Virus record (IMG/VR): IMGVR_UViG_3300045116_000511
Reading direction: 5' to 3' (one strand)
Length of the DNA: 14,236 nucleotides
Origin: a virus
The translations under genes were made by a program, and so were the position numbers. Shown piece after piece: positions 5,422 through 14,236 of this stretch. Positions within the stretch are counted from its first letter, which is position 1. Each line of letters begins with the position of its first letter. The notes under the pieces are model-generated. The model ran no database searches. It had not been told where the DNA came from and worked only from the letters and a program-made list of their open reading frames with translations.

Positions 5422-5457
5422 GTTCCTTTCATGCAGAATGTTCCTTTCATGCAGAAT
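5422..5457. repeat. Perfect tandem direct repeat, 2 x 18 bp (gttcctttcatgcagaat), in the SPFH gene leader.
   Basis: Read directly: 5422-5439 is identical to 5440-5457. On the minus strand each unit reads ATTCTGCATGAAAGGAAC, so it carries an in-frame ATG and an AAGGAA SD-like element. Confidence 0.9.
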
Positions 5458-5531: not shown

Positions 5532-6032
5532 CTATTTGTCTTTAACGCAATTGACTAACACGTTGGCAGCCTTCGTTCTCTGATCACTCCACCCACCACT
5601 TGATGGGATTTCTTCCAGGATGGCTTGCAGTTGTTCTCCAGTTAGTTTCGGCCAGTCAGCAAAGTTTTTCGTTGCCTTTGCACGATCAGCGATCAGGTCC
5701 ACTTTGTCTTGATCTCTCACCGCAGCCACGGCGGCGTATAGAGCAGCCCACTCACCGGGCATCGTTTGAGCAATCGCCTGCCGTTTCGCTTTAGCCTCAT
5801 CAGAAGCAGCAAGCACGTTGCTTATGGCCGGAGCAATCACATAGATGGACATCAGAACCAGAAACGCAGCTCCGGTCACAATCCAGATTGCTTCGATGGG
5901 TACATAAAGGGCAAAGGGAAACACGGGCACCAGAATTGTACGATGCCCGCAGGCAGGACAGTAAGTTCCCCCGCTTTTCAGCTTAAGACCATGCTTCTCG
6001 CAAACTGGATTATTACACTTTTTGCTACGCAT
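5532..6032 (-). CDS. Zinc-ribbon (CxxC-x15-CxxC) protein with two TM helices and a cytoplasmic C-terminal domain, 166 aa.
   Basis: MRSKKCNNPVCEKHGLKLKSGGTYCPACGHRT, then TILVPVFPFALYVPIEAIWIVTGAAFLVLMSIYVIAPAI. ATG 6032 overlaps the end of the upstream ORF by 8 nt. Confidence 0.65.
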   Translation of the reverse strand: MRSKKCNNPVCEKHGLKLKSGGTYCPACGHRTILVPVFPFALYVPIEAIWIVTGAAFLVLMSIYVIAPAISNVLAASDEAKAKRQAIAQTMPGEWAALYAAVAAVRDQDKVDLIADRAKATKNFADWPKLTGEQLQAILEEIPSSGGWSDQRTKAANVLVNCVKDK

Positions 6033-6531
6033 GCGAATTCATGATCTCTTCTTCCGTTGTTCGGCGGACGATAAGGCGGAAGCCTTCAATGACAATAGGC
6101 GTCTTTTCCCATTGACAATCCGATTGTGCTCGCAACTCCACAAACTTCCTGGCTCGTTCTTGTAGCGTTTTGATCTCAGCCTCGGTCGGTTTGGCGTCAA
6201 AGAAGATCGCAACGCTATTATAAGCTGGCCACTGATGTTTTACTTTCTTGGCTTTCGGATCGGTTTCTCGGTAATGTTGGCCGTTACCGTCATTGACCCA
6301 ACCCGGAGTGGCCCAAAGACTATACGGCAACGGACCATATTCGCCATACAGCGACACGAGATGTTCGTTGGGTTCGTCGTCCTCCCCAACTTTGTTTTCC
6401 TTGCGATACCGCTTGATCCATTCATCCTCGCCTTCTTCATTGTCGTAACCATTAAAACCGACAACGAAACCGCACATCTCGCGCTCGAAGTTACCGGCAT
6501 AACTGTCGGTATCGATGATAAAGACATACAA
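6025..6531 (-). CDS. Hypothetical acidic protein (C-terminal 168 codons as listed); the true N-terminus is unresolved.
   Basis: The track start at 6531 is TTG. The first ATG is at 6477. The frame stays open upstream to 6762 and encodes a zinc ribbon. Confidence 0.5.
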   Translation of the reverse strand: MYVFIIDTDSYAGNFEREMCGFVVGFNGYDNEEGEDEWIKRYRKENKVGEDDEPNEHLVSLYGEYGPLPYSLWATPGWVNDGNGQHYRETDPKAKKVKHQWPAYNSVAIFFDAKPTEAEIKTLQERARKFVELRAQSDCQWEKTPIVIEGFRLIVRRTTEEEIMNSHA

Positions 6532-6789
6532 TTCATCAGGCGGTAAATCTACTGAGTAAGTCCCTGGATATTTTTGATTGACCGCGGCCGTAATGGCATC
6601 ATCGCTGTCATTACCGAACGAAACCTCGCCACAGTTTCGGCATTTAGAAATCGGAACTTCTGGAACTGTGATGTCAACCAGCTCGCCTTTTACTCGAACT
6701 TTGAGGGCATAGTTTTCCAGCGTAGCCGGATAAACTTCTTGCTTCAGGCAAGTAACACAACGCTAGGGATACGGCTTCGACTTAGGCAT
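6532..6789 (-). other. In-frame upstream extension of the 6025-6531 ORF encoding a CxxC-x28-CxxC zinc ribbon with no canonical start; an upstream in-frame ATG (6789..6787) is separated from it by an amber TAG (6763-6765).
   Basis: Own translation: ATG CCT AAG TCG AAG CCG TAT CCC TAG | CGT TGT GTT ACT TGC ... reads MPKSKPYP*RCVTCLKQEVYPATLENYALKVRVKGELVDITVPEVPISKCRNCGEVSFGNDSDDAITAAVNQKYPGTYSVDLPPDE-LYVFIIDTD. Between the TAG and the TTG at 6531 there are 77 stop-free codons and no ATG/GTG/TTG. Confidence 0.5.
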
Positions 6790-7786
6790 CTTTCTCAAGA
6801 TAAGAGTCAGATACGATCTTGAGCATCACGCGCCCAATCTCCGCATCATTGCGTTCTTTCTCTGGGATGATCACGCAGCCTTCCCGGACATGATCAGCAC
6901 CGGGCCAGGTACTGCGCCCTTCCGAGAGTGAAAGAGCAATCTTGGCGTCAAACGGCCCTTTGTAGAGCAGAGGCACCCATGCCACTTTCGGGGTGACCAT
7001 CGCATAGGCTTCGTCAAAATCCAACCACTGATTCTGTTTCAGAACAGCAAAAGCGGCAAAAAAGACATCGTTCCTTTTTGCCCCGTACTTGAGCTTCTGG
7101 ACCTGCCCAAAAACTTCGCCGTACAGAATCAGAGTCGGGTGTTCCTTGCACCACTCTCCAATAGCTGGATTTCGGTGGAATGCCATCCACCAGTAGTTCT
7201 TGTCATCTTCAGCCAGCCAGTTGGTCCGCGAGCCGCAGAACTGTTTCCATTCCCCATCCTTGTCCTGGGCGTAGGTATATCTGGCGTTAGCTCCATGAAT
7301 CTTCTCGGTGATTACAACGGGCTCGCCAGCCGTAAACATCTGGAAGTAGCGCTGGTAGCATTCGACATCGAACTTAGGACAATACAGACCCGAAGGCCCA
7401 CCAACAAATAGCCCACCCGAAGACATGGGCAGCGGGGGCTCATATCGCTCAATGCCAAGTTCGGCAATGACGTTAGCGCCCACGGATCGATCCAGCAATT
7501 CCGGGGGCACCGGGATTAGCAGTCCCTGACTGAGCGCCCCCTTGAATCGACGGACTCGAATGCGTTCCTGCGGTTTACCATCTTCGCGCTTCAGAAACGC
7601 AAAAGATGGATTAGAAATTGGCACGAGATAATCCGGTGGGATATAGATCGCCAGATCACCCTCTTTGAAGTCGTCTTTGCCGATACAGCACTGCCAACCC
7701 CAGATGCGGGTAATTGCAAGCCGATCAGCGTTGGCGTGAGGCTCAATTTTACCGATTTGGACAATTTCAATTCGATGTTCGCTCAT
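6782..7786 (-). CDS. ATP-dependent RNA ligase, Rnl2-like nucleotidyltransferase with an N-terminal OB-like domain (Rnl5-type domain order), 334 aa.
   Basis: From ATG 7786 (GGAG 9 nt upstream); the codon at the track start 7807 is TTG. Motif I VVITEKIHGANARY (KxHGxN as in T4 Rnl2), motif III-like LILYGEVFGQ, motif IV-like DVFFAAFAV, motif V-like EGCVIIPEKE. N-terminal RIEIVQIGKIEPHANADRLAITRIWGWQCCIGKDDFKEGDLAIYIPPD resembles a tRNA-binding OB fold. Confidence 0.8.
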   Translation of the reverse strand: MSEHRIEIVQIGKIEPHANADRLAITRIWGWQCCIGKDDFKEGDLAIYIPPDYLVPISNPSFAFLKREDGKPQERIRVRRFKGALSQGLLIPVPPELLDRSVGANVIAELGIERYEPPLPMSSGGLFVGGPSGLYCPKFDVECYQRYFQMFTAGEPVVITEKIHGANARYTYAQDKDGEWKQFCGSRTNWLAEDDKNYWWMAFHRNPAIGEWCKEHPTLILYGEVFGQVQKLKYGAKRNDVFFAAFAVLKQNQWLDFDEAYAMVTPKVAWVPLLYKGPFDAKIALSLSEGRSTWPGADHVREGCVIIPEKERNDAEIGRVMLKIVSDSYLEKDA

Positions 7787-8217
7787 GCGGCATTGCTCCG
7801 TTTCCAAACAACAAACTCATAAAACTGCTGTCTGTTATTAAACTTCCAGCCGAACTTTTTATGAAAACTGATATGACATTTTCGGCACAAGCAAACTCCA
7901 TTGTCTAAGTCCACTCTCAAAGAGGGATTGGCGTGGTAGCTTTCAAGGTGGTGACTCGCTAACTCACCGCCGTGTTTGTTGCATACGACACATCTAAAAC
8001 CATCTCTTTCCTTTATCGCGATTCTCCATGCGCGGAACTCTTCTCTAATACGCCGATCCTGTCTCTCTGAATCGGTGAGTCGCGAATTCCAGGCTGGATT
8101 CTTATCTCCCGTCTGAGATTTCAGTCTTTCGTAATTCCAGCAACCACATGACTGAGTCGTTCCGCCTATAAGCGAATTGCGGAAAACAACGCATACGTTA
8201 CCACATTCTCGCCGACG
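7783..8217 (-). CDS. HNH endonuclease (His-Me finger). The open frame runs from the in-frame TAA at 8218-8220 to a TGA overlapping the RNA-ligase ATG, with no ATG/GTG/TTG before the catalytic core. Candidate ATT start at 8049 with an AGGA SD.
   Basis: Own translation: ...FRAWRIAIKERDGFRCVVCNKHGGELASHHLESYHANPSLRVDLDNGVCLCRKCHISFHKKFGW... (CxxC..HH..N..CxC..CH..H). It is not in the ORF track. The first canonical in-frame start, TTG, lies after the HH dyad. ATT (8049..8047) is preceded by AGGA with 7-nt spacing. A frame-1 ATG at 8194 plus a 1-nt change in the T4 run 8183-8186 would also give a full ORF. Confidence 0.55.
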   Translation of the reverse strand, partial: RRRECGNVCVVFRNSLIGGTTQSCGCWNYERLKSQTGDKNPAWNSRLTDSERQDRRIREEFRAWRIAIKERDGFRCVVCNKHGGELASHHLESYHANPSLRVDLDNGVCLCRKCHISFHKKFGWKFNNRQQFYEFVVWKRSNAA

Positions 8218-8230
8218 TTACGCGCTGTCA

Positions 8231-8497
8231 TCATGGCATCTTGCCCTGCTGAAATTCAGCATAGGTTACCGAGCCACCAGTCGGGCCGACCCCAGTAACA
8301 ATGAAGTTACCAGCCGAGCGACGGATGGTATGAACACCACGCTTACCCTTACGTCGCTCAAAGGGTTTGTACCGAATCTCCTGGCAGCCGCTCCCGTTAC
8401 ATTGGAGGCAGACTACACCAACGCCTGGTGGCTCGGCAAAGCCGCGGTAAATGCCACTTCCCTCACAAGCACCACACTCTGCTTTAACCGTTTCCAT
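8231..8497 (-). CDS. DnaJ-type zinc-finger protein (two CxxCxGxG repeats, one predicted Zn centre), 88 aa.
   Basis: METVKAECGACEGSGIYRGFAEPPGVGVVCLQCNGSGCQEIRY. SD GAGGcggaacATG. Ends in a double stop TGATGA. Confidence 0.65.
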   Translation of the reverse strand: METVKAECGACEGSGIYRGFAEPPGVGVVCLQCNGSGCQEIRYKPFERRKGKRGVHTIRRSAGNFIVTGVGPTGGSVTYAEFQQGKMP

Positions 8498-8900
8498 GTT
8501 CCGCCTCGATTAGCATGCGGCGCTTTAATCGACTCGCGGCAATTGCCCGTTCAAATTGCAATTTGGCCATCACGGTCGGCCCATCGTGGCATGCCTTGTT
8601 GTAGGCGGTCCACAGAGCCGTCCGCAGGTCACGACCCTCAACCTTTGCAACCGCCGCTTCAAATGCCCATCGGCGGCCGAAGGCGCGGAAAAAACTGTCA
8701 CCACCGCCACATTGGGCGCGATGCTCGGCAATCACATCGTATTGCCCATTGCCGACTTCATGGAGAATCTTAACCTCGGTAAACGGCTTTTCGTCCTTGA
8801 CGGACAAAACCTGTGCCGAAATTTTCTTCGGCACATGCGCTGGGTTAGAGTGAAAGACCTTGATACAAAACGATTGACCGCCGTGATTCAACCGGATCAT
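8484..8900 (-). CDS. Hypothetical 138-aa protein.
   Basis: ATG 8900 with an excellent SD (AAGGAGcaaccATG). TAA 8484-8486. No motif recognised. Confidence 0.6.
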   Translation of the reverse strand: MIRLNHGGQSFCIKVFHSNPAHVPKKISAQVLSVKDEKPFTEVKILHEVGNGQYDVIAEHRAQCGGGDSFFRAFGRRWAFEAAVAKVEGRDLRTALWTAYNKACHDGPTVMAKLQFERAIAASRLKRRMLIEAEHGNG

Positions 8901-8909
8901 GGTTGCTCC

Positions 8910-9245
8910 TTATTTCTTCAACACAGTATACGCTGCAATAATCCGTTTGGCTCTTTCATTGGACTCTTTGGTATTGCCACATCTATCTGGGTGGAATCGG
9001 AGCATCAGCATGCGATACGCATGCTTGATTTCGTCCTGAGTCGCATTCGGGCTAACACCAAGAATCACCCACGGTGAATCTGGTTGGCCGGAAAGAATCT
9101 CTTCGGCTTCTTCTCGGCCCATCGCCTCAGAGAAAGCTTGACGCCACTGAGCGGCGCTCCCGGCCGGGCCGACGTAAGTACCGTATGGCGACTGGTCAGT
9201 CCAGACGTTACGCTTTGGTTTATTGGGATCGCGCTGTCGAGGCAT
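8910..9245 (-). CDS. J-domain (DnaJ N-terminal domain) protein, 111 aa, with the J-domain at the C-terminus.
   Basis: WVILGVSPNATQDEIKHAYRMLMLRFHPDRCGNTKESNERAKRIIAAYTVLKK carries the HPD tripeptide and flanking helices. SD GGTGG. First gene downstream of a consensus promoter. Confidence 0.85.
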   Translation of the reverse strand: MPRQRDPNKPKRNVWTDQSPYGTYVGPAGSAAQWRQAFSEAMGREEAEEILSGQPDSPWVILGVSPNATQDEIKHAYRMLMLRFHPDRCGNTKESNERAKRIIAAYTVLKK

Positions 9246-9271
9246 CGTACCACCAATTAGCCGTCATGCGT

Positions 9272-9300
9272 ATAATACCGATTACTGGAAGAATTGTCAA
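9272..9300 (-). promoter_or_regulatory. Consensus sigma70-type promoter (TTGACA, 17-bp spacer, TATTAT) driving the minus-strand cluster that begins with the J-domain gene.
   Basis: Plus-strand tgtcaa at 9295-9300 and ataata at 9272-9277 read on the minus strand as TTGACA-17-TATTAT. The predicted TSS is near 9265 and the start codon is at 9245. Confidence 0.5.
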
Positions 9301-9361
9301 CCACGAATGATAGTAGTGCAGCCAAAGAAAAAAATTTCCCTGAATTTTTCAGAGGGCTGAA

Positions 9362-9390
9362 TTGACAGCACGTAGAATATGTCATATTCT
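9362..9390 (+). promoter_or_regulatory. Divergent plus-strand promoter (TTGACA, 17-bp spacer, TATTCT) whose -10 is embedded in a 17-bp perfect palindrome AGAATAT-gtc-ATATTCT (9374-9390). Operator-like.
   Basis: Read directly: TTGACA 9362-9367, a 17-nt spacer, TATTCT 9385-9390. The inverted repeat has 7-bp arms. An A-tract at 9325-9340 lies between the divergent promoters. Confidence 0.45.
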
Positions 9391-9499
9391 TCCATCGGCG
9401 TGGTAGGATCAACTCGTCGTTGATGCTGCCTTTGTCCTGTCACAAGACAGGCCGGGCTAAGCCCGCAGTGAGTGGAATCCCGACTGTAAAAGGAGAACG

Positions 9500-9616
9500 A
9501 TGATGTGGTTTGTTAATTTTTTTAGCTGGTTCAGCACCGCTGGTACGTTTATTGAGGGAGTCCAGAACTTCTTCGCATGGCTCACCTCGATTTTCAACCA
9601 GATCACCACTGCGTAG
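9500..9616 (+). CDS. Small hydrophobic 38-aa peptide (MMWFVNFFSWFSTAGTFIEGVQNFFAWLTSIFNQITTA). Membrane peptide or type I toxin-like.
   Basis: Strong SD AAGGAG 4 nt before ATG 9500. Double stop TAGTAA. A ~100-nt leader with three hairpins (9408-9424, 9436-9451, 9453-9465). Followed by a strong intrinsic terminator. Below the ORF-track size cutoff. Confidence 0.5.
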   Translation: MMWFVNFFSWFSTAGTFIEGVQNFFAWLTSIFNQITTA

Positions 9617-9628
9617 TAACAGCTGAGC

Positions 9629-9661
9629 AAAAAGGAAGGGCTCAATGCCCTTCCTTTTTCG
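9629..9661. terminator. Bidirectional rho-independent terminator (stem aaaggaagggc / gcccttccttt, loop tcaat, A-run before and T-run after).
   Basis: 9631-9657 forms an 11-bp perfect stem, followed by TTTTT on the plus strand and preceded by AAAAA, so it is also a terminator on the minus strand. Confidence 0.7.
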
Positions 9662-9869
9662 TTCCGTCAAACAAATCATCAGGCCATAGTATCTGCTTAT
9701 CACGCAGCGCGACTACGTCTCGGTAGAGAGACTTTAGAATCTTCACTCTTTCAAGGGCAAGGCCGTCGTGGTTCTTTAGAAGATCAGGTCGCAGAATTAG
9801 AAGTGTTTCGACACTCAGCAAAATTTCGACATTATGAATGCAAGTGGCGAATACGTCGAGTTTATTCAT
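9642..9869 (-). CDS. Hypothetical 75-aa protein whose stop lies inside the terminator hairpin.
   Basis: ORF track with ATG at 9869 and a weak SD. Protein-like composition (MNKLDVFATCIHNVEILLSVETLLILRPDLLKNHDG...). Confidence 0.4.
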   Translation of the reverse strand: MNKLDVFATCIHNVEILLSVETLLILRPDLLKNHDGLALERVKILKSLYRDVVALRDKQILWPDDLFDGTKKEGH

Positions 9870-10021
9870 CTTTTTCGAGCGAAAGAAACCTCGAAATCTT
9901 TAGTTTCTGGTAGAAATTCGCTCAACTCCTATTGTATAATAACACTGTTCTTTGACAACTACAAAAGAGAGCTATTGAGGAGCAAGCTCTGAAGTCTTTA
10001 GCTTCGGAGCAGTTGACTGAG

Positions 10022-10819
10022 TTAGTCCCAATCCGATCCTTGCTCAGTGGGCTTCCGGTCACGCAGCCACCGCTCGTAATCCCAAACATAAATCCCAAGC
10101 TCCCCGGATTTATTCACCATGCCAGTTTGACCTTCAAACCATTTCGAGAACCGCTTCACTTCCTCCGCTGAGTGATGCTCATCCAGCATCGCTTTTGTGA
10201 TGAATTTGATACCAGACTCGGTTTTGTAGAGTTTCTGAGGAATCCTACTCCCAGCAACGATGACCGGTTTTGACTTTTCCTCGCCGTATTTGTACTGGAA
10301 ACTGGGAGAACTCAATCGATCCGGGTCTTCCTTAAATCGAAGCGCCTGCTGCTTCAAAGCGTCGAGCAATTCCGTCTGATGCCCCGGATACAAATGAATC
10401 ACTGCCGGATGCCCATTCTGCGGGATGAAGACCATCGAGGTGCCCCAATATTCCCGAGCACTCTCGCAGGGAATCAGGACCAGCCTCGATCCGCACGCGC
10501 AGTCATCATCACAGCGGGTGATTAACACCGTAGGATGCTTCTTCGCCCACTTGGTCACTTCTTGGATAAGTTCGTGACCTTCCCACTTCCACTGACGACC
10601 AGCGGCTCCACAGGGACAAAACTTTTCAAGGAATCCATGCCAAATCTTGAACAGCTTCAGAGAATTGGCATTCATGCGCTTGCCACGCTCTCGAATAATC
10701 TTGCACTCCGACGCCAGACCAGGCCGGGATACTTGCTCCCCACAGTTACAGCGGAAGGCCATTTCCTTCCCATCTCCGCTGTATGAGCAGAGATTAAACT
10801 GATGTACATGCTTTTTCAT
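10022..10819 (-). CDS. Cys-rich hypothetical 265-aa protein with several CxC/CxxC clusters.
   Basis: FRCNCGE, FCPCGAAG, RCDDDCACGSRLVLIPC. ATG 10819 with an AGAGAGAA SD-like element. Followed 15 nt downstream by the hairpin 9985-10010. Confidence 0.65.
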   Translation of the reverse strand: MKKHVHQFNLCSYSGDGKEMAFRCNCGEQVSRPGLASECKIIRERGKRMNANSLKLFKIWHGFLEKFCPCGAAGRQWKWEGHELIQEVTKWAKKHPTVLITRCDDDCACGSRLVLIPCESAREYWGTSMVFIPQNGHPAVIHLYPGHQTELLDALKQQALRFKEDPDRLSSPSFQYKYGEEKSKPVIVAGSRIPQKLYKTESGIKFITKAMLDEHHSAEEVKRFSKWFEGQTGMVNKSGELGIYVWDYERWLRDRKPTEQGSDWD

Positions 10820-12456: not shown

Positions 12457-12470
12457 TCTTCAACTCCTGC

Positions 12471-12499
12471 ATTTTACCACAGGGCCGCCGAAATGTCAA
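12471..12499 (-). promoter_or_regulatory. Consensus sigma70-type promoter (TTGACA, 17-bp spacer, TAAAAT) upstream of the SWIM gene.
   Basis: Plus-strand tgtcaa at 12494-12499 and atttta at 12471-12476 read on the minus strand as TTGACA-17-TAAAAT. The predicted TSS falls within or next to the AGGAG SD, implying a very short leader. Confidence 0.5.
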
Positions 12500-12758
12500 A
12501 CGACTTGGACCTTGTAAATTGCTTTTGAGACGGCTGGCATGCCTATCGCCACCACTTTCTCCTGGCTGGAACGGGATAACCTGGCTGCCGCCGATATTGT
12601 ATCGGTCTGGAATGCGTTTACGTCTACCCATTAGCCGTAATTCTAACATTTTGCCGCTGAATGTCATTGAACTACCACACTCACAAGTGGTGGGGATTCC
12701 CAAACTTCTATGCGACCTTTGGTCGCAAGGGTCTCTGGTGAGCCAGATTCAAGTGGCT

Positions 12759-12787
12759 CATTTGTTGAACATCTAGCTCAACAAATG
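12759..12787. other. Perfect 10-bp stem hairpin (catttgttga / tcaacaaatg, 9-nt loop), one of a cluster of hairpins in a non-coding region.
   Basis: Read directly. Neighbouring hairpins: 12736-12756 (gagcca...tggctc) and 12800-12818 (gctgtctc aaa gagacagc, 8-bp perfect stem). Confidence 0.5.
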
Positions 12788-12913
12788 TTTCGTGACCCTG
12801 CTGTCTCAAAGAGACAGCCAACTGGTCCGAGTGGTTCTCCCTGAATCACGGAAACACGTTTGGATGAGAACATGTAGGAAACCAGTTATGTTATTATACA
12901 CGCTCGCATTCAT

Positions 12914-12940
12914 CCCCGCCCATAAAGGGCGGGGTTTTCT
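12914..12940 (+). terminator. Rho-independent terminator oriented for plus-strand transcription (ccccgccc ataaa gggcgggg TTTT), with no annotated plus-strand gene upstream.
   Basis: 8-bp GC stem, 5-nt loop, T-run 12935-12938. There is no A-run on the other side, so it is unidirectional. Confidence 0.55.
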
Positions 12941-12953
12941 GCGAGCTATCTAT

Positions 12954-12989
12954 AAAAAAGCCCTGTCCCGGTTTGCGCCGAGACAGGGC
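12954..12989 (-). terminator. Rho-independent terminator for the minus-strand SPFH gene that ends at 13012.
   Basis: On the minus strand: stem gccctgtc / gacagggc (8 bp, 14-nt loop) followed by TTTTTT (the reverse complement of aaaaaa at 12954-12959). It lies 22 nt downstream of the TAA at 13012-13014. Confidence 0.65.
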
Positions 12990-13011
12990 GGGATCAGGAG
13001 GGGGACACGAG

Positions 13012-14236
13012 TTAGTCTGTGTCGCTCTCAGTGGACTGGATGCCAGCGCCGAGCCGGTTTACAATGTTCGCCAACGGAGTCCCGTTAAAGACCTTCGTCA
13101 GCACCTCAACCACGCTCTCGCCGCCAATCAGTGACTGGATCGAAATCGCCTTTGCCGCCTTGGTCAGCACATCGTCGCGATTCAGAGCCAGCAGAGCCTC
13201 TGCCATCTTGCCATCGGCAGCTTTGAAGCGACTGATGGTTGATTCGCTCTCTGCCACAAGTTGCCTCAAAGTCAGCTCCAGACGTTTCTGCTCAACGTCA
13301 TGGTCATGACCGTCTTTCTCCACCACTCGCTTCATGTTGGCGTTGTGACGGATGTCCTCGACTACCTCATTGGCTTGAGCCTGCTTTTGCTGTCCCTCAA
13401 CCTTCTTCATGATGGCTTCGAGATTCTGCGCCTCGACTTCCATTTCCTTACGCAGAATCTCTTGTTCTGTGGACAGCTGCTGTTTGCGGGTATCCGCAGT
13501 CGCCACATTGACTTGCTGGTTCAGTTTCTCCTGCTCCAGCTTGCCCGACACATTACGCCGAGCATTCTGCAAGTCAATGTTGGCTTTCACCGCCGCAAAC
13601 TGCGCCGACATGAGCAGATTTGCGACGTTCTGGTCAGCAATTGTGAAACCCAGGACTTCGACATCCTGGACGATCATGCCGTTTTCCTTGAAAGGCATGC
13701 CCTTGCGGACGCCCTCGACCGAGTGGCCCAGAATGGCGTCACGAATGATCGGGACGTGATTAGCATAGAACTCTTCGATTGTGTGAGTCTTGACCACACC
13801 TTTGAGGACCGAGCGGACGTGATCGCAAAGCAGCTTGACGTAGTTCTCGACTTCAAACCACTTGTCCGGCTCACCGTCGAAGTTAACGAGCAGCGAAATC
13901 TTCACGGAGACCGAAACGTGATCGCTGGTCTCGACATCGATGATGTCAGAAACTTTGTTGTTGCGCGTCCGCAAGTAAACAGTGCGCTCCAACTTGTCGG
14001 TATTCTTCGGCTTGCCTGTTGACAGTTCCAGCACTTCCAGTGACTCGTCGTAGTCAAGCAGAATCGTAGTCGGACCCTGCTCAACGCGCCGACCACCTTT
14101 CTTGTCTACCACCATGACGGCATACCCTGTCCACACGTTGATGGTGGGGACGCCATCATATTTGGTATCCAAGGTGATCGAGCGGGGCTGCGTATACGAC
14201 GTACCACGCTTGATTGTATCTGCTGCGGATAGTTGG
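13012..14236 (-). CDS. Second SPFH/band-7 domain protein (C-terminal >400 aa); the 5' end lies beyond the window.
   Basis: The track 'start' at 14172 is TTG and the frame stays open to the window edge (..QLSAADTIKRGTSYTQPRSITLDTKYDGVPTINVWTGYAVMVVDKKGG..). SPFH-like core (...VPIIRDAILGHSVEGVRKGMPFKENGMIVQDVEVLGFTIADQNVANLLMSAQFAAVKANIDLQNARR...), then a Gln/Glu/Lys-rich coiled coil. TAA at 13012-13014. Confidence 0.8.
   Translation of the reverse strand, partial: QLSAADTIKRGTSYTQPRSITLDTKYDGVPTINVWTGYAVMVVDKKGGRRVEQGPTTILLDYDESLEVLELSTGKPKNTDKLERTVYLRTRNNKVSDIIDVETSDHVSVSVKISLLVNFDGEPDKWFEVENYVKLLCDHVRSVLKGVVKTHTIEEFYANHVPIIRDAILGHSVEGVRKGMPFKENGMIVQDVEVLGFTIADQNVANLLMSAQFAAVKANIDLQNARRNVSGKLEQEKLNQQVNVATADTRKQQLSTEQEILRKEMEVEAQNLEAIMKKVEGQQKQAQANEVVEDIRHNANMKRVVEKDGHDHDVEQKRLELTLRQLVAESESTISRFKAADGKMAEALLALNRDDVLTKAAKAISIQSLIGGESVVEVLTKVFNGTPLANIVNRLGAGIQSTESDTD

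Follow-up and report, generated by a model that had tools for sequence, protein, structure and literature searches.

A conserved small peptide gene in a divergent promoter hub of a metagenomic phage: a candidate early cassette for a membrane-associated peptide

Morons, a concept of Hendrix and Juhala, are accessory phage genes that possess their own promoter and terminator and lie between the neighbouring phage genes, often in the opposite orientation. They were defined in temperate phages and prophages by their presence or absence between close relatives, and their composition often deviates from that of the surrounding DNA. The staphylococcal delta-toxin and the phenol-soluble modulins (PSMs) are amphipathic cytolytic helices without a signal sequence; the beta-type PSMs are about 44 residues long and anionic. 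Here we describe a gene for a 38-residue peptide in a divergent promoter hub at positions 9246-9661 of the IMG/VR virus record IMGVR_UViG_3300045116_000511, a complete JGI metagenome contig of 14,236 nucleotides (nt) whose full length is called the window in the following. From the hub the peptide gene is read rightward and the gene of a J-domain (DnaJ-domain) protein leftward. Apart from sequences identical to the window, a single relative spans the hub: a 732-bp ENA contig (L003), which was found by a homology search with the J protein and which extends 344 bp upstream of its J gene and so covers the whole hub. The peptide cassette is moron-like in its anatomy, as it consists of a single small gene that has its own sigma-70 promoter and intrinsic terminator and is oriented opposite to nearly all genes of the window. 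It differs from morons in that its only close relative, L003, also contains the cassette, in that its GC content is just slightly below that of the flanks and in that no lysogeny genes were seen in the 14 kb. Like the delta-toxin and the PSMs, the peptide is 35-45 residues long, carries a negative net charge and is predicted to be an unprocessed and continuous amphipathic helix, but these toxins come from other organisms and another context, lack sequence similarity to the peptide and have a polar face of Lys, Asp and Glu, in contrast to the uncharged Ser, Thr, Asn and Gln of the window peptide.

Type I toxins (Hok, Ldr/Fst, TisB, Ibs, ShoB, ZorO, BsrG and YonT; PMC2887945) resemble the peptide in their size of less than 60 residues, their richness in hydrophobic residues and the structured 5' untranslated region of their mRNAs, but the window peptide shows no sequence similarity to any known family. 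In the par locus of pAD1, which encodes Fst and RNA II (PMC7472228), convergent units share a bidirectional terminator, as they do here; in contrast to par, the start-site direct repeats (DRa/DRb) are absent from the present locus and its convergent RNA carries an open reading frame (ORF). Small regulatory proteins of the bacterial inner membrane, of the AcrZ, MgrB, MgtS, KdpF and CydX class, and the many small proteins with a predicted transmembrane segment in small-ORF catalogues of phages and microbiomes (for example PMC11364881) are likewise composed of 30-50 residues, form a single helix rich in aromatic residues, are translated from a strong Shine-Dalgarno (SD) sequence and are usually missed by gene callers, and the conserved polar or acidic residue in the helix fits the binding of a larger membrane protein. 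However, homology to these proteins is lacking, and the window peptide is less hydrophobic than a typical single-pass helix and has no flanking basic residues that would fix its topology. The J-domain gene has a described counterpart in rki of phage RB43, whose transcription is early and whose promoter is of the TTGACA type (PMC3486835). Both are phage J-domain genes behind a TTGACA-type promoter of the host polymerase, but Rki has 237 residues and an N-terminal J domain, whereas in the window protein, of 111 residues, the J domain is C-terminal. For rki, a small peptide gene in divergent orientation is not described.

The peptide cassette and its conservation

An earlier note on this DNA, made from its letters, had proposed two near-consensus promoters that fire outward from a 60-bp AT-rich core, a structured leader, a small hydrophobic peptide gene and a bidirectional terminator. 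Each of the listed features is present, and the hub with its small ORF behind a promoter of its own is genuine (coordinates in Table 1). Promoters were scored by the number of matches, out of 12, to the sigma-70 consensus, and the chance level was obtained from dinucleotide shuffles of the window. The window contains ten sites with at least 10/12 matches versus 1.5 +/- 1.3 in the shuffles (about 7-fold enrichment) and two sites with at least 11/12 versus 0.08. As these counts far exceed those of the shuffles, both hub promoters (11/12 leftward, 10/12 rightward) are well above chance and are taken as real signals in a promoter-dense window. The core measures 61 bp and is indeed AT-rich, with 39% GC versus 50% for the whole window. 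The transcript of the peptide gene is predicted to start near G9397. Its leader has approximately the length that had been given, about 103 nt, but it folds into four hairpins rather than three, the first of which begins some 5 nt away from the +1 predicted. The leader fold has a z score of -2.84, and one of 200 shuffles was equally stable; the whole plus-strand transcript is unusually stable (z -4.98). The SD sequence was rightly called strong and is unpaired in the minimum free energy and the centroid folds of the window leader and of both models of the L003 leader. The perfect terminator behind the ORF was also confirmed, with folding energies of -26.8 kcal/mol (z -7.2) on the plus strand and -21.6 kcal/mol (z -4.3) on the minus strand.

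The peptide gene is retained in L003 as an ORF of 35 codons, MDWFVELFTWISNLGGFLDGIANFFAWLQVILPPQ. Conservation of the peptide at the amino-acid level had been named beforehand as a test. The window and L003 share 17 residues over the 32 codons that align without gaps; for 10 of these residues the codons differ, and the nucleotide differences at codon positions 1, 2 and 3 amount to 11, 8 and 21. When the same 40 nucleotide differences were placed at random 20,000 times, the mean was 9.1 identical residues and 17 were reached with P = 5e-5, while the observed BLOSUM score was reached in none of the 20,000 permutations. Most of the replacements are conservative (F/L, S/T, F/I, I/L, E/D, V/I). To judge from these sequences, the peptide frame is under purifying selection. 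The antisense frames behave differently. An 87-aa antisense ORF (9440-9703), of which a 79-aa version instead of the peptide was annotated by the gene caller on a Logan contig identical to this part of the window, has a stop in L003. The frame of a 62-aa antisense ORF is open across the aligned block, but it is less conserved (13/31) and L003 has two stops just upstream of the block. The codon-usage score of the sense frame, +0.30 bit/codon, is like that of the long genes, but that of the best antisense frame is +0.29, so that this scoring does not separate sense from antisense. GC skew is positive only across 9200-9650 and negative elsewhere, where the genes form a minus-strand array; GC content is 0.47-0.49 in the cassette versus 0.51-0.55 in the leftward flank. 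Because of the sense-frame conservation, the stops of the antisense frames in L003, the gene-like codon score and the GC skew limited to the cassette, we conclude, on the strength of sequence comparison, that the peptide is encoded by a real gene whose amino-acid sequence is conserved.

Outside L003 no homologue of the peptide came to light. A word-index search and an exhaustive phmmer search of 1.84 billion representatives returned none, nor did a profile search against PHROGs, Pfam, NCBIfam and PDB or a search of IMG/VR with the alignment of the two peptides. A tblastn search of GenBank phages and PLSDB plasmids yielded only noise (E about 8-9). The degenerate pattern WFV...NFFAW gave 30 matches in JGI metagenomes, 15 in GTDB and 3 in IMG/VR, all of which proved random after in-frame translation, and none of the 29 IMG/VR matches to the relaxed pattern G..NFFAWL was homologous. 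Within the databases searched, the peptides of the window and L003 thus appear as an orphan family of two.

Besides the ORF and its ATG, L003 retains the J promoter (TTGACT-17-TATTAT), a peptide promoter, the ribosome site AAGGAGA and the bidirectional terminator, while the intergenic DNA, 151 bp in L003 versus 254 bp in the window, is otherwise unalignable. The peptide promoter occupies the equivalent place in another form, either a perfect TATAAT whose -35 is poor or TTGAAA-16-AAAAAT. L003 lacks the 61-bp spacer, and its two -35 regions abut (TTGAAAGTCAA). The leader is conserved neither in sequence nor in length nor in its hairpins: that of L003 is about 58 nt long and has two unrelated hairpins (z -2.73), the first of which starts at the predicted +1. 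The terminator of L003 lies in the same place and is again a perfect hairpin with an A-run and a T-run (-19.5 kcal/mol, z -5.2). Its stem reads GGGAAGG/CCTTCCC versus GGAAGGGC/GCCCTTCC in the window, both perfectly paired, and the loop TCAAT is identical. A search of Rfam with 9246-9616 gave no family match; on the minus strand, 9620-9670 matched STnc320 with 25 bits versus a gathering score of 50 (E 0.48), and this match coincides with the terminator hairpin.

Table 1 Coordinates of the hub features and of neighbouring genes in the window
Feature	Position	Strand	Remarks
J-gene promoter TTGACA(9300..9295)-17-TATTAT(9277..9272)	9272..9300	minus	sigma-70-type, 11/12
Spacer between the two -35 boxes	9301..9361		61 bp, 39% GC, A/T tract, weak inverted repeat CCCTGAA..TTCAGAGGG
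Peptide-gene promoter TTGACA(9362-9367)-17-TATTCT(9385-9390)	9362..9390	plus	sigma-70-type, 10/12
Perfect 8-1-8 palindrome AGAATATG-T-CATATTCT	9374..9390		covers the -10 at 9385-9390; significance unproven
5' untranslated leader, ~103 nt	~9397..9499	plus	four hairpins, unpaired SD
Leader hairpins	9402-9430, 9436-9451, 9453-9465, 9466-9486	plus	RNA fold -40.6 kcal/mol
SD AAGGAG	9490-9495	plus	unpaired in the leader fold
38-aa peptide gene MMWFVNFFSWFSTAGTFIEGVQNFFAWLTSIFNQITTA	9500..9616	plus	the second ATG (9503) would give 37 aa; tandem stops TAG TAA
Bidirectional intrinsic terminator AAAAAGGAAGGGC-TCAAT-GCCCTTCCTTTTT	9629..9659		13-bp perfect arms 9629-9641 and 9647-9659; flanks A5 and T5
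ORF75, convergent 75-codon ORF	9642..9869	minus	TGA stop inside the terminator loop; gene call on the identical Logan contig
ORF75 promoter-like site TTGTCA-16-TACAAT	9958..9931	minus	would drive ORF75
111-aa J-domain protein gene	8910..9245	minus	first gene of the leftward unit; Pfam PF00226, E 3e-15, residues 60-110
RNA ligase	6782-7807	minus	long ORF of the minus-strand array
SPFH/Band-7-like protein, 474 aa	4050-5474	minus	sub-threshold Band_7 match and phrog_11908
HNH homing endonuclease, 243 aa	11427-12158	plus	phrog_2255, E 1e-37
386-aa protein with major-vault-protein shoulder and repeat domains	13012-14172	minus	E 5e-25

The palindrome over the -10 of the peptide promoter had been read as a typical repressor site under tight repression. 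The dyad exists (AGAATATgtcATATTCT), but its arms are of 8 bp with a 1-bp centre and not the 7-3-7 arrangement described, and although its symmetry overlaps a core promoter element, as in an operator, the other observations do not support that function. Its conservation in related genomes had also been set as a test, and L003, which alone among the relatives covers the site, does not have it. When arms of 7 bp or more and spacers up to 6 are allowed, the window has 15 perfect palindromes, some of them nested, versus 7 +/- 3 in the shuffles, which is within about 2.5 standard deviations; two further ones have 8-bp arms, one of these inside the J gene. Since perfect dyads are common in the window, that at 9374-9390 is statistically unremarkable. 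The full dyad occurs once in the window, with a half-site elsewhere only at 5453, and an exact search of IMG/VR for the promoter with the palindrome found none. A Pfam scan of 28 ORFs of the window gave no helix-turn-helix or repressor family, and neither an integrase nor another family of DNA-binding proteins was detected. On these grounds the operator is unsupported, and the palindrome is most likely incidental or lineage-specific. A separate feature of the spacer is a weak terminator-like hairpin on the minus strand (9338-9354; CTCTGAA-AAA-TTCAGGG followed by AAATTTTTTT), which L003 does not contain and which might insulate the J promoter from read-through.

Properties of the peptide and competing explanations

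The description of the peptide as made almost only of hydrophobic and aromatic residues does not fit its composition: 22 of the 38 residues are hydrophobic or aromatic, 13 are Asn, Ser, Thr or Gln, two are Gly and one is Glu, so that it is better called amphipathic. It contains 11 aromatic residues (8 Phe and 3 Trp; 29%), the Glu as its one acidic residue and neither Lys nor Arg, which are also missing from the L003 peptide. The grand average of hydropathy (GRAVY) is 0.71 for the window peptide and 0.78 for the L003 peptide. The last ten residues, TSIFNQITTA in the window and AWLQVILPPQ in L003, are uncharged. Conserved between the two are G15, G20 and E19, the latter as D19. AlphaFold2, run on the single sequence, predicts one helix from residue 2 to 37 with a predicted local distance difference test (pLDDT) score of 92.9. 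The helical hydrophobic moment exceeds that of 98.8% of shuffles (P = 0.012) and is highest at 105-110 degrees per residue. Positions 6, 9, 13, 16, 20, 23, 30, 34 and 37, occupied by polar or small residues, form a stripe with 3-4-3-4 spacing, which would be completed at position 27, a Trp. The Wimley-White sums are -10.3 kcal/mol for the interface and -12.7 kcal/mol for octanol. These properties fit a membrane-associated amphipathic helix that may either span the membrane or lie on its surface, and self-association of the peptide or its docking to a membrane protein is plausible.

We favour, with moderate confidence, the view that the hub contains a monocistronic early-gene cassette whose product is a membrane-associated peptide of host takeover, in a large phage that is rare and probably lytic. 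Of the earlier proposal of a small phage membrane effector under tight repression, the effector is still the best functional guess while the repression is not borne out. According to the favoured scheme, the sigma-70 RNA polymerase of the host would fire leftward into the gene cluster headed by the J-domain gene, whose product resembles a DnaK co-chaperone, and rightward into the peptide gene, where it would produce a monocistronic mRNA of about 265 nt (about 9397-9660). By analogy with rki of RB43 (PMC3486835), both units would be transcribed immediately after infection. The hairpins near the 5' end of the mRNA probably slow 5'-end-dependent decay, and the strong, unmasked SD would provide for efficient translation of the 37- or 38-residue peptide. 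The bidirectional terminator would end both the peptide unit and the convergent unit of ORF75 and thereby prevent transcriptional collision. Soon after infection the peptide would partition into or onto the inner membrane of the host, where it might act as a host-takeover or exclusion factor through self-association or through binding of a host membrane protein, a function that we infer from the composition of the peptide alone.

Several points weigh against this view. The best Kyte-Doolittle window of 19 residues reaches 0.92 (1.46 in L003), below the transmembrane threshold of 1.6, and the Fozo proxy for hydrophobicity, which requires at least 10 residues of I/V/L/F/C/M/A in 15 (PMC2887945), has by hand count a maximum of 8 for the window peptide and 10 for that of L003. 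There are no positive charges to set the topology, and true membrane insertion is therefore uncertain. A helix predicted by AlphaFold2 from a single sequence is a weak form of evidence. The peptide promoter of L003 is weaker or different, and every statement on conservation comes from one pairwise comparison, as a single relative covers the locus.

In a rival explanation, which we regard as unlikely but deserving of attention, the peptide is real but binds a soluble partner, its helix docking on a host protein as an inhibitor or adaptor, like many small early proteins of phages, or acting together with the J protein and the DnaK of the host. The hydropathy below classical transmembrane thresholds and the missing positive-inside signal would suit such a peptide, as would the heptad-like 3-4-3-4 polar spacing and the moment peaking at 105-110 degrees, which are found in helix-helix packing, and its gene is divergently linked to the J-domain gene in the window and in L003. 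However, a free peptide with 11 aromatic residues and a single charge among 38 should dissolve poorly, both partition sums strongly favour the membrane, and the J gene of a distant relative (L052), with 43% identity of the protein, is not adjoined by a peptide gene. A bolder variant of the membrane reading, which we consider improbable, would make the two peptides a new family of acidic, Phe/Trp-rich amphipathic helices free of Lys and Arg that lytic phages produce early and that assemble into an oligomeric viroporin-like channel or clamp a basic residue within the membrane part of a host protein. The heptad-spaced stripe of Ser, Thr, Asn and Gly and the Glu or Asp in the middle of the helix would then mediate assembly or clamping, and the divergently encoded J-domain protein might bring DnaK to the site of the peptide. 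In a weaker form of this variant, a kissing contact between the complementary terminator hairpins, with their conserved TCAAT loop, would couple the expression of the two convergent mRNAs in the manner of the par locus of pAD1.

The type I toxin-antitoxin system that the earlier note had also considered, a membrane-depolarising toxin held off by an antisense RNA, by a self-masking leader or, in an Fst/par-like variant, by the convergent transcript, retains a slim chance. A small hydrophobic peptide, a long structured 5' untranslated region and a strong terminator are present. The convergent promoters at 9362-9390 (plus) and 9958..9931 (minus) with their shared terminator superficially recall par of pAD1 (PMC7472228), and the TCAAT loop is the same in the window and L003 despite different stems. 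Against it, no minus-strand sigma-70-like site with at least 9/12 matches was found in silico in 9380-9720; the single 8/12 site of this stretch precedes the terminator on that strand. The SD is free in the leaders of the window and of L003, and these leaders are not conserved. Instead of DRa/DRb-type repeats, 9390-9960 contains only a 10-nt pair at chance level (9623/9814), away from the start, and the convergent transcript, of about 290 nt, carries a 75-codon ORF. The peptide has neither Lys and Arg nor the charged C-terminal cluster of such toxins (PMC2887945). Its gene follows the upstream gene at a distance of 254 nt and overlaps with the end of the downstream gene, whereas more than 400 and more than 250 nt, respectively, are typical (PMC2887945), and its context is the early region of a probably lytic phage and not a plasmid or prophage. 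As an antisense promoter, a masked SD and Fst/par-type repeats are lacking, a type I toxin is unsupported. Very improbable is a non-coding or regulatory plus-strand RNA with an incidental ORF, or an antisense ORF as the real gene, despite the gene call on the antisense strand of the identical contig, the stability of the transcript and the equal codon score of the best antisense frame. The excess of third-position changes and the significance of the sense-frame conservation speak against it, as do the conserved SD and ATG, the stop in the 87-aa frame, the poorer conservation of the 62-aa frame with its two upstream stops and the missing Rfam family in 9246-9616; the RNA outside the ORF is, moreover, the least conserved part. 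Attenuators of the pheL and trpL type are arranged as promoter, leader, short ORF rich in Phe or Trp, and terminator. The same order is seen here, with 8 Phe and 3 Trp codons in the ORF and the terminator 12 nt past the stop, and stalled ribosomes could control read-through of the terminator. The probability of such a mechanism is close to negligible, since no co-oriented gene follows downstream and the reading is therefore rejected; read-through would only be antisense to ORF75 and to a gene of 265 codons. The Phe codons are scattered and not arranged in a run, L003 has only five of them, the conserved positions include Gly, Asn, Ala and Ser and not aromatic residues alone, and by eye, as no formal search was made, no antiterminator complement to the left arm of the terminator was noticed.

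Small phage genes are systematically missed, and in the present case the gene caller chose the wrong strand on the identical contig; one short contig of a relative can be enough to settle the coding strand. The locus adds one orphan family of small peptides whose composition, 29% aromatic and free of basic residues, is unusual. This is a modest gain in annotation without a new mechanism, as small accessory membrane peptides with a cassette of their own are a familiar kind of phage gene. If the peptide does target a host membrane protein or work with the J protein, it would be useful for probing how the host is taken over early in infection.

The J-domain gene and the convergent unit

The J domain occupies the C-terminal part of the J protein, and the N-terminal part is basic. 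A search with this protein returned the protein itself, the identical Logan contig, L003 and L052. The L003 protein (P0002) is 79% identical, and the nucleotide differences at the three codon positions are 18, 16 and 66. L001 has only a J-domain fragment in common and is not syntenic. L052 has no peptide cassette beside its J gene, and it is not collinear with the window. The peptide gene is therefore a lineage-specific accessory gene that is not obligately linked to the J gene. When 333-347 of L003 is compared with 9243-9277 of the window, the -10 (TATTAT) of the L003 J gene is seen to end just 6 nt ahead of the ATG, so that the J mRNA of L003 should be leaderless. In the window, an insertion of about 18-20 nt relative to L003 supplies the J gene with the ribosome site GGTGGT. 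Two genes downstream of the J gene, an ORF of 88 codons (8231-8497, minus) begins METVKAECGACEGSGIYRG...VVCLQCNGSGCQE and has two exact copies of CXXCXGXG, the motif that marks the zinc finger of DnaJ, with a Pfam DnaJ_CXXCXGXG match of only E 0.18. Possibly, one operon of the phage encodes a split DnaJ whose J domain and zinc finger are made as two small proteins.

On the other side of the hub, ORF75 converges on the peptide gene. Its codon score is ambiguous and it matches no family. At 9911-9958, opposite promoter-like sites overlap through the shared ATTGTATAAT, TAGAAA-18-TATAAT on the plus strand and TTGTCA-16-TACAAT on the minus strand. The minus site would drive ORF75, and the plus site may be an artefact of the AT-rich dyad.

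The phage region around the hub

Nearly all long ORFs of the window are on the minus strand. The Logan contig L002 (SRR35384393) is 100% identical to 5724-10041, and at the nucleotide level neither the hub nor the whole window matched E. coli genomes or GenBank phages. For the RNA ligase, identity to proteins of GenBank phages does not exceed 38%, and several of the better matches are from very large phages. Homology searches with the neighbouring proteins of 138 and 265 residues gave no relatives, and no tRNA was found in the window. The window is probably an early, non-structural region of a rare large phage with a lytic lifestyle, sigma-70-type promoters and AGGAG ribosome sites.

Apart from the peptide gene, only that of the HNH homing endonuclease clearly runs on the plus strand within the minus-strand array; its codon score of +0.00 bit/codon is atypical. 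The RNA ligase is preceded upstream by a gap of some 420 bp (7783-8230) in which no ORF reaches 50 codons. A 45-codon ORF on its minus strand (7783-7920) has a CxxCH HNH-like motif (Pfam HNH_2, E 0.005, below the cut-off) and may be a decayed homing endonuclease. Two SPFH-related proteins, of 474 and 386 residues, are encoded within this one 14-kb phage fragment.

About 550 bp at 12457-13011 are devoid of any ORF with coding-like codon usage. They contain two strong minus-strand promoters, 12499..12471 (11/12, with TG) and 12667..12640, dyads with arms of 7-8 bp at 12711 and 12800 and two terminators back-to-back, 12914-12934 (plus) and 12989..12960 (minus). A weak Rfam match to HgcC (27 bits versus a gathering score of 50) coincides with a terminator hairpin. 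This segment could hold a non-coding RNA or a second regulatory hub. An ORF of 67 codons on the minus strand (1588-1791), with an AGGAG ribosome site, two hydrophobic stretches and a GRAVY of 0.69, matches no family and is a second candidate for a small membrane protein.

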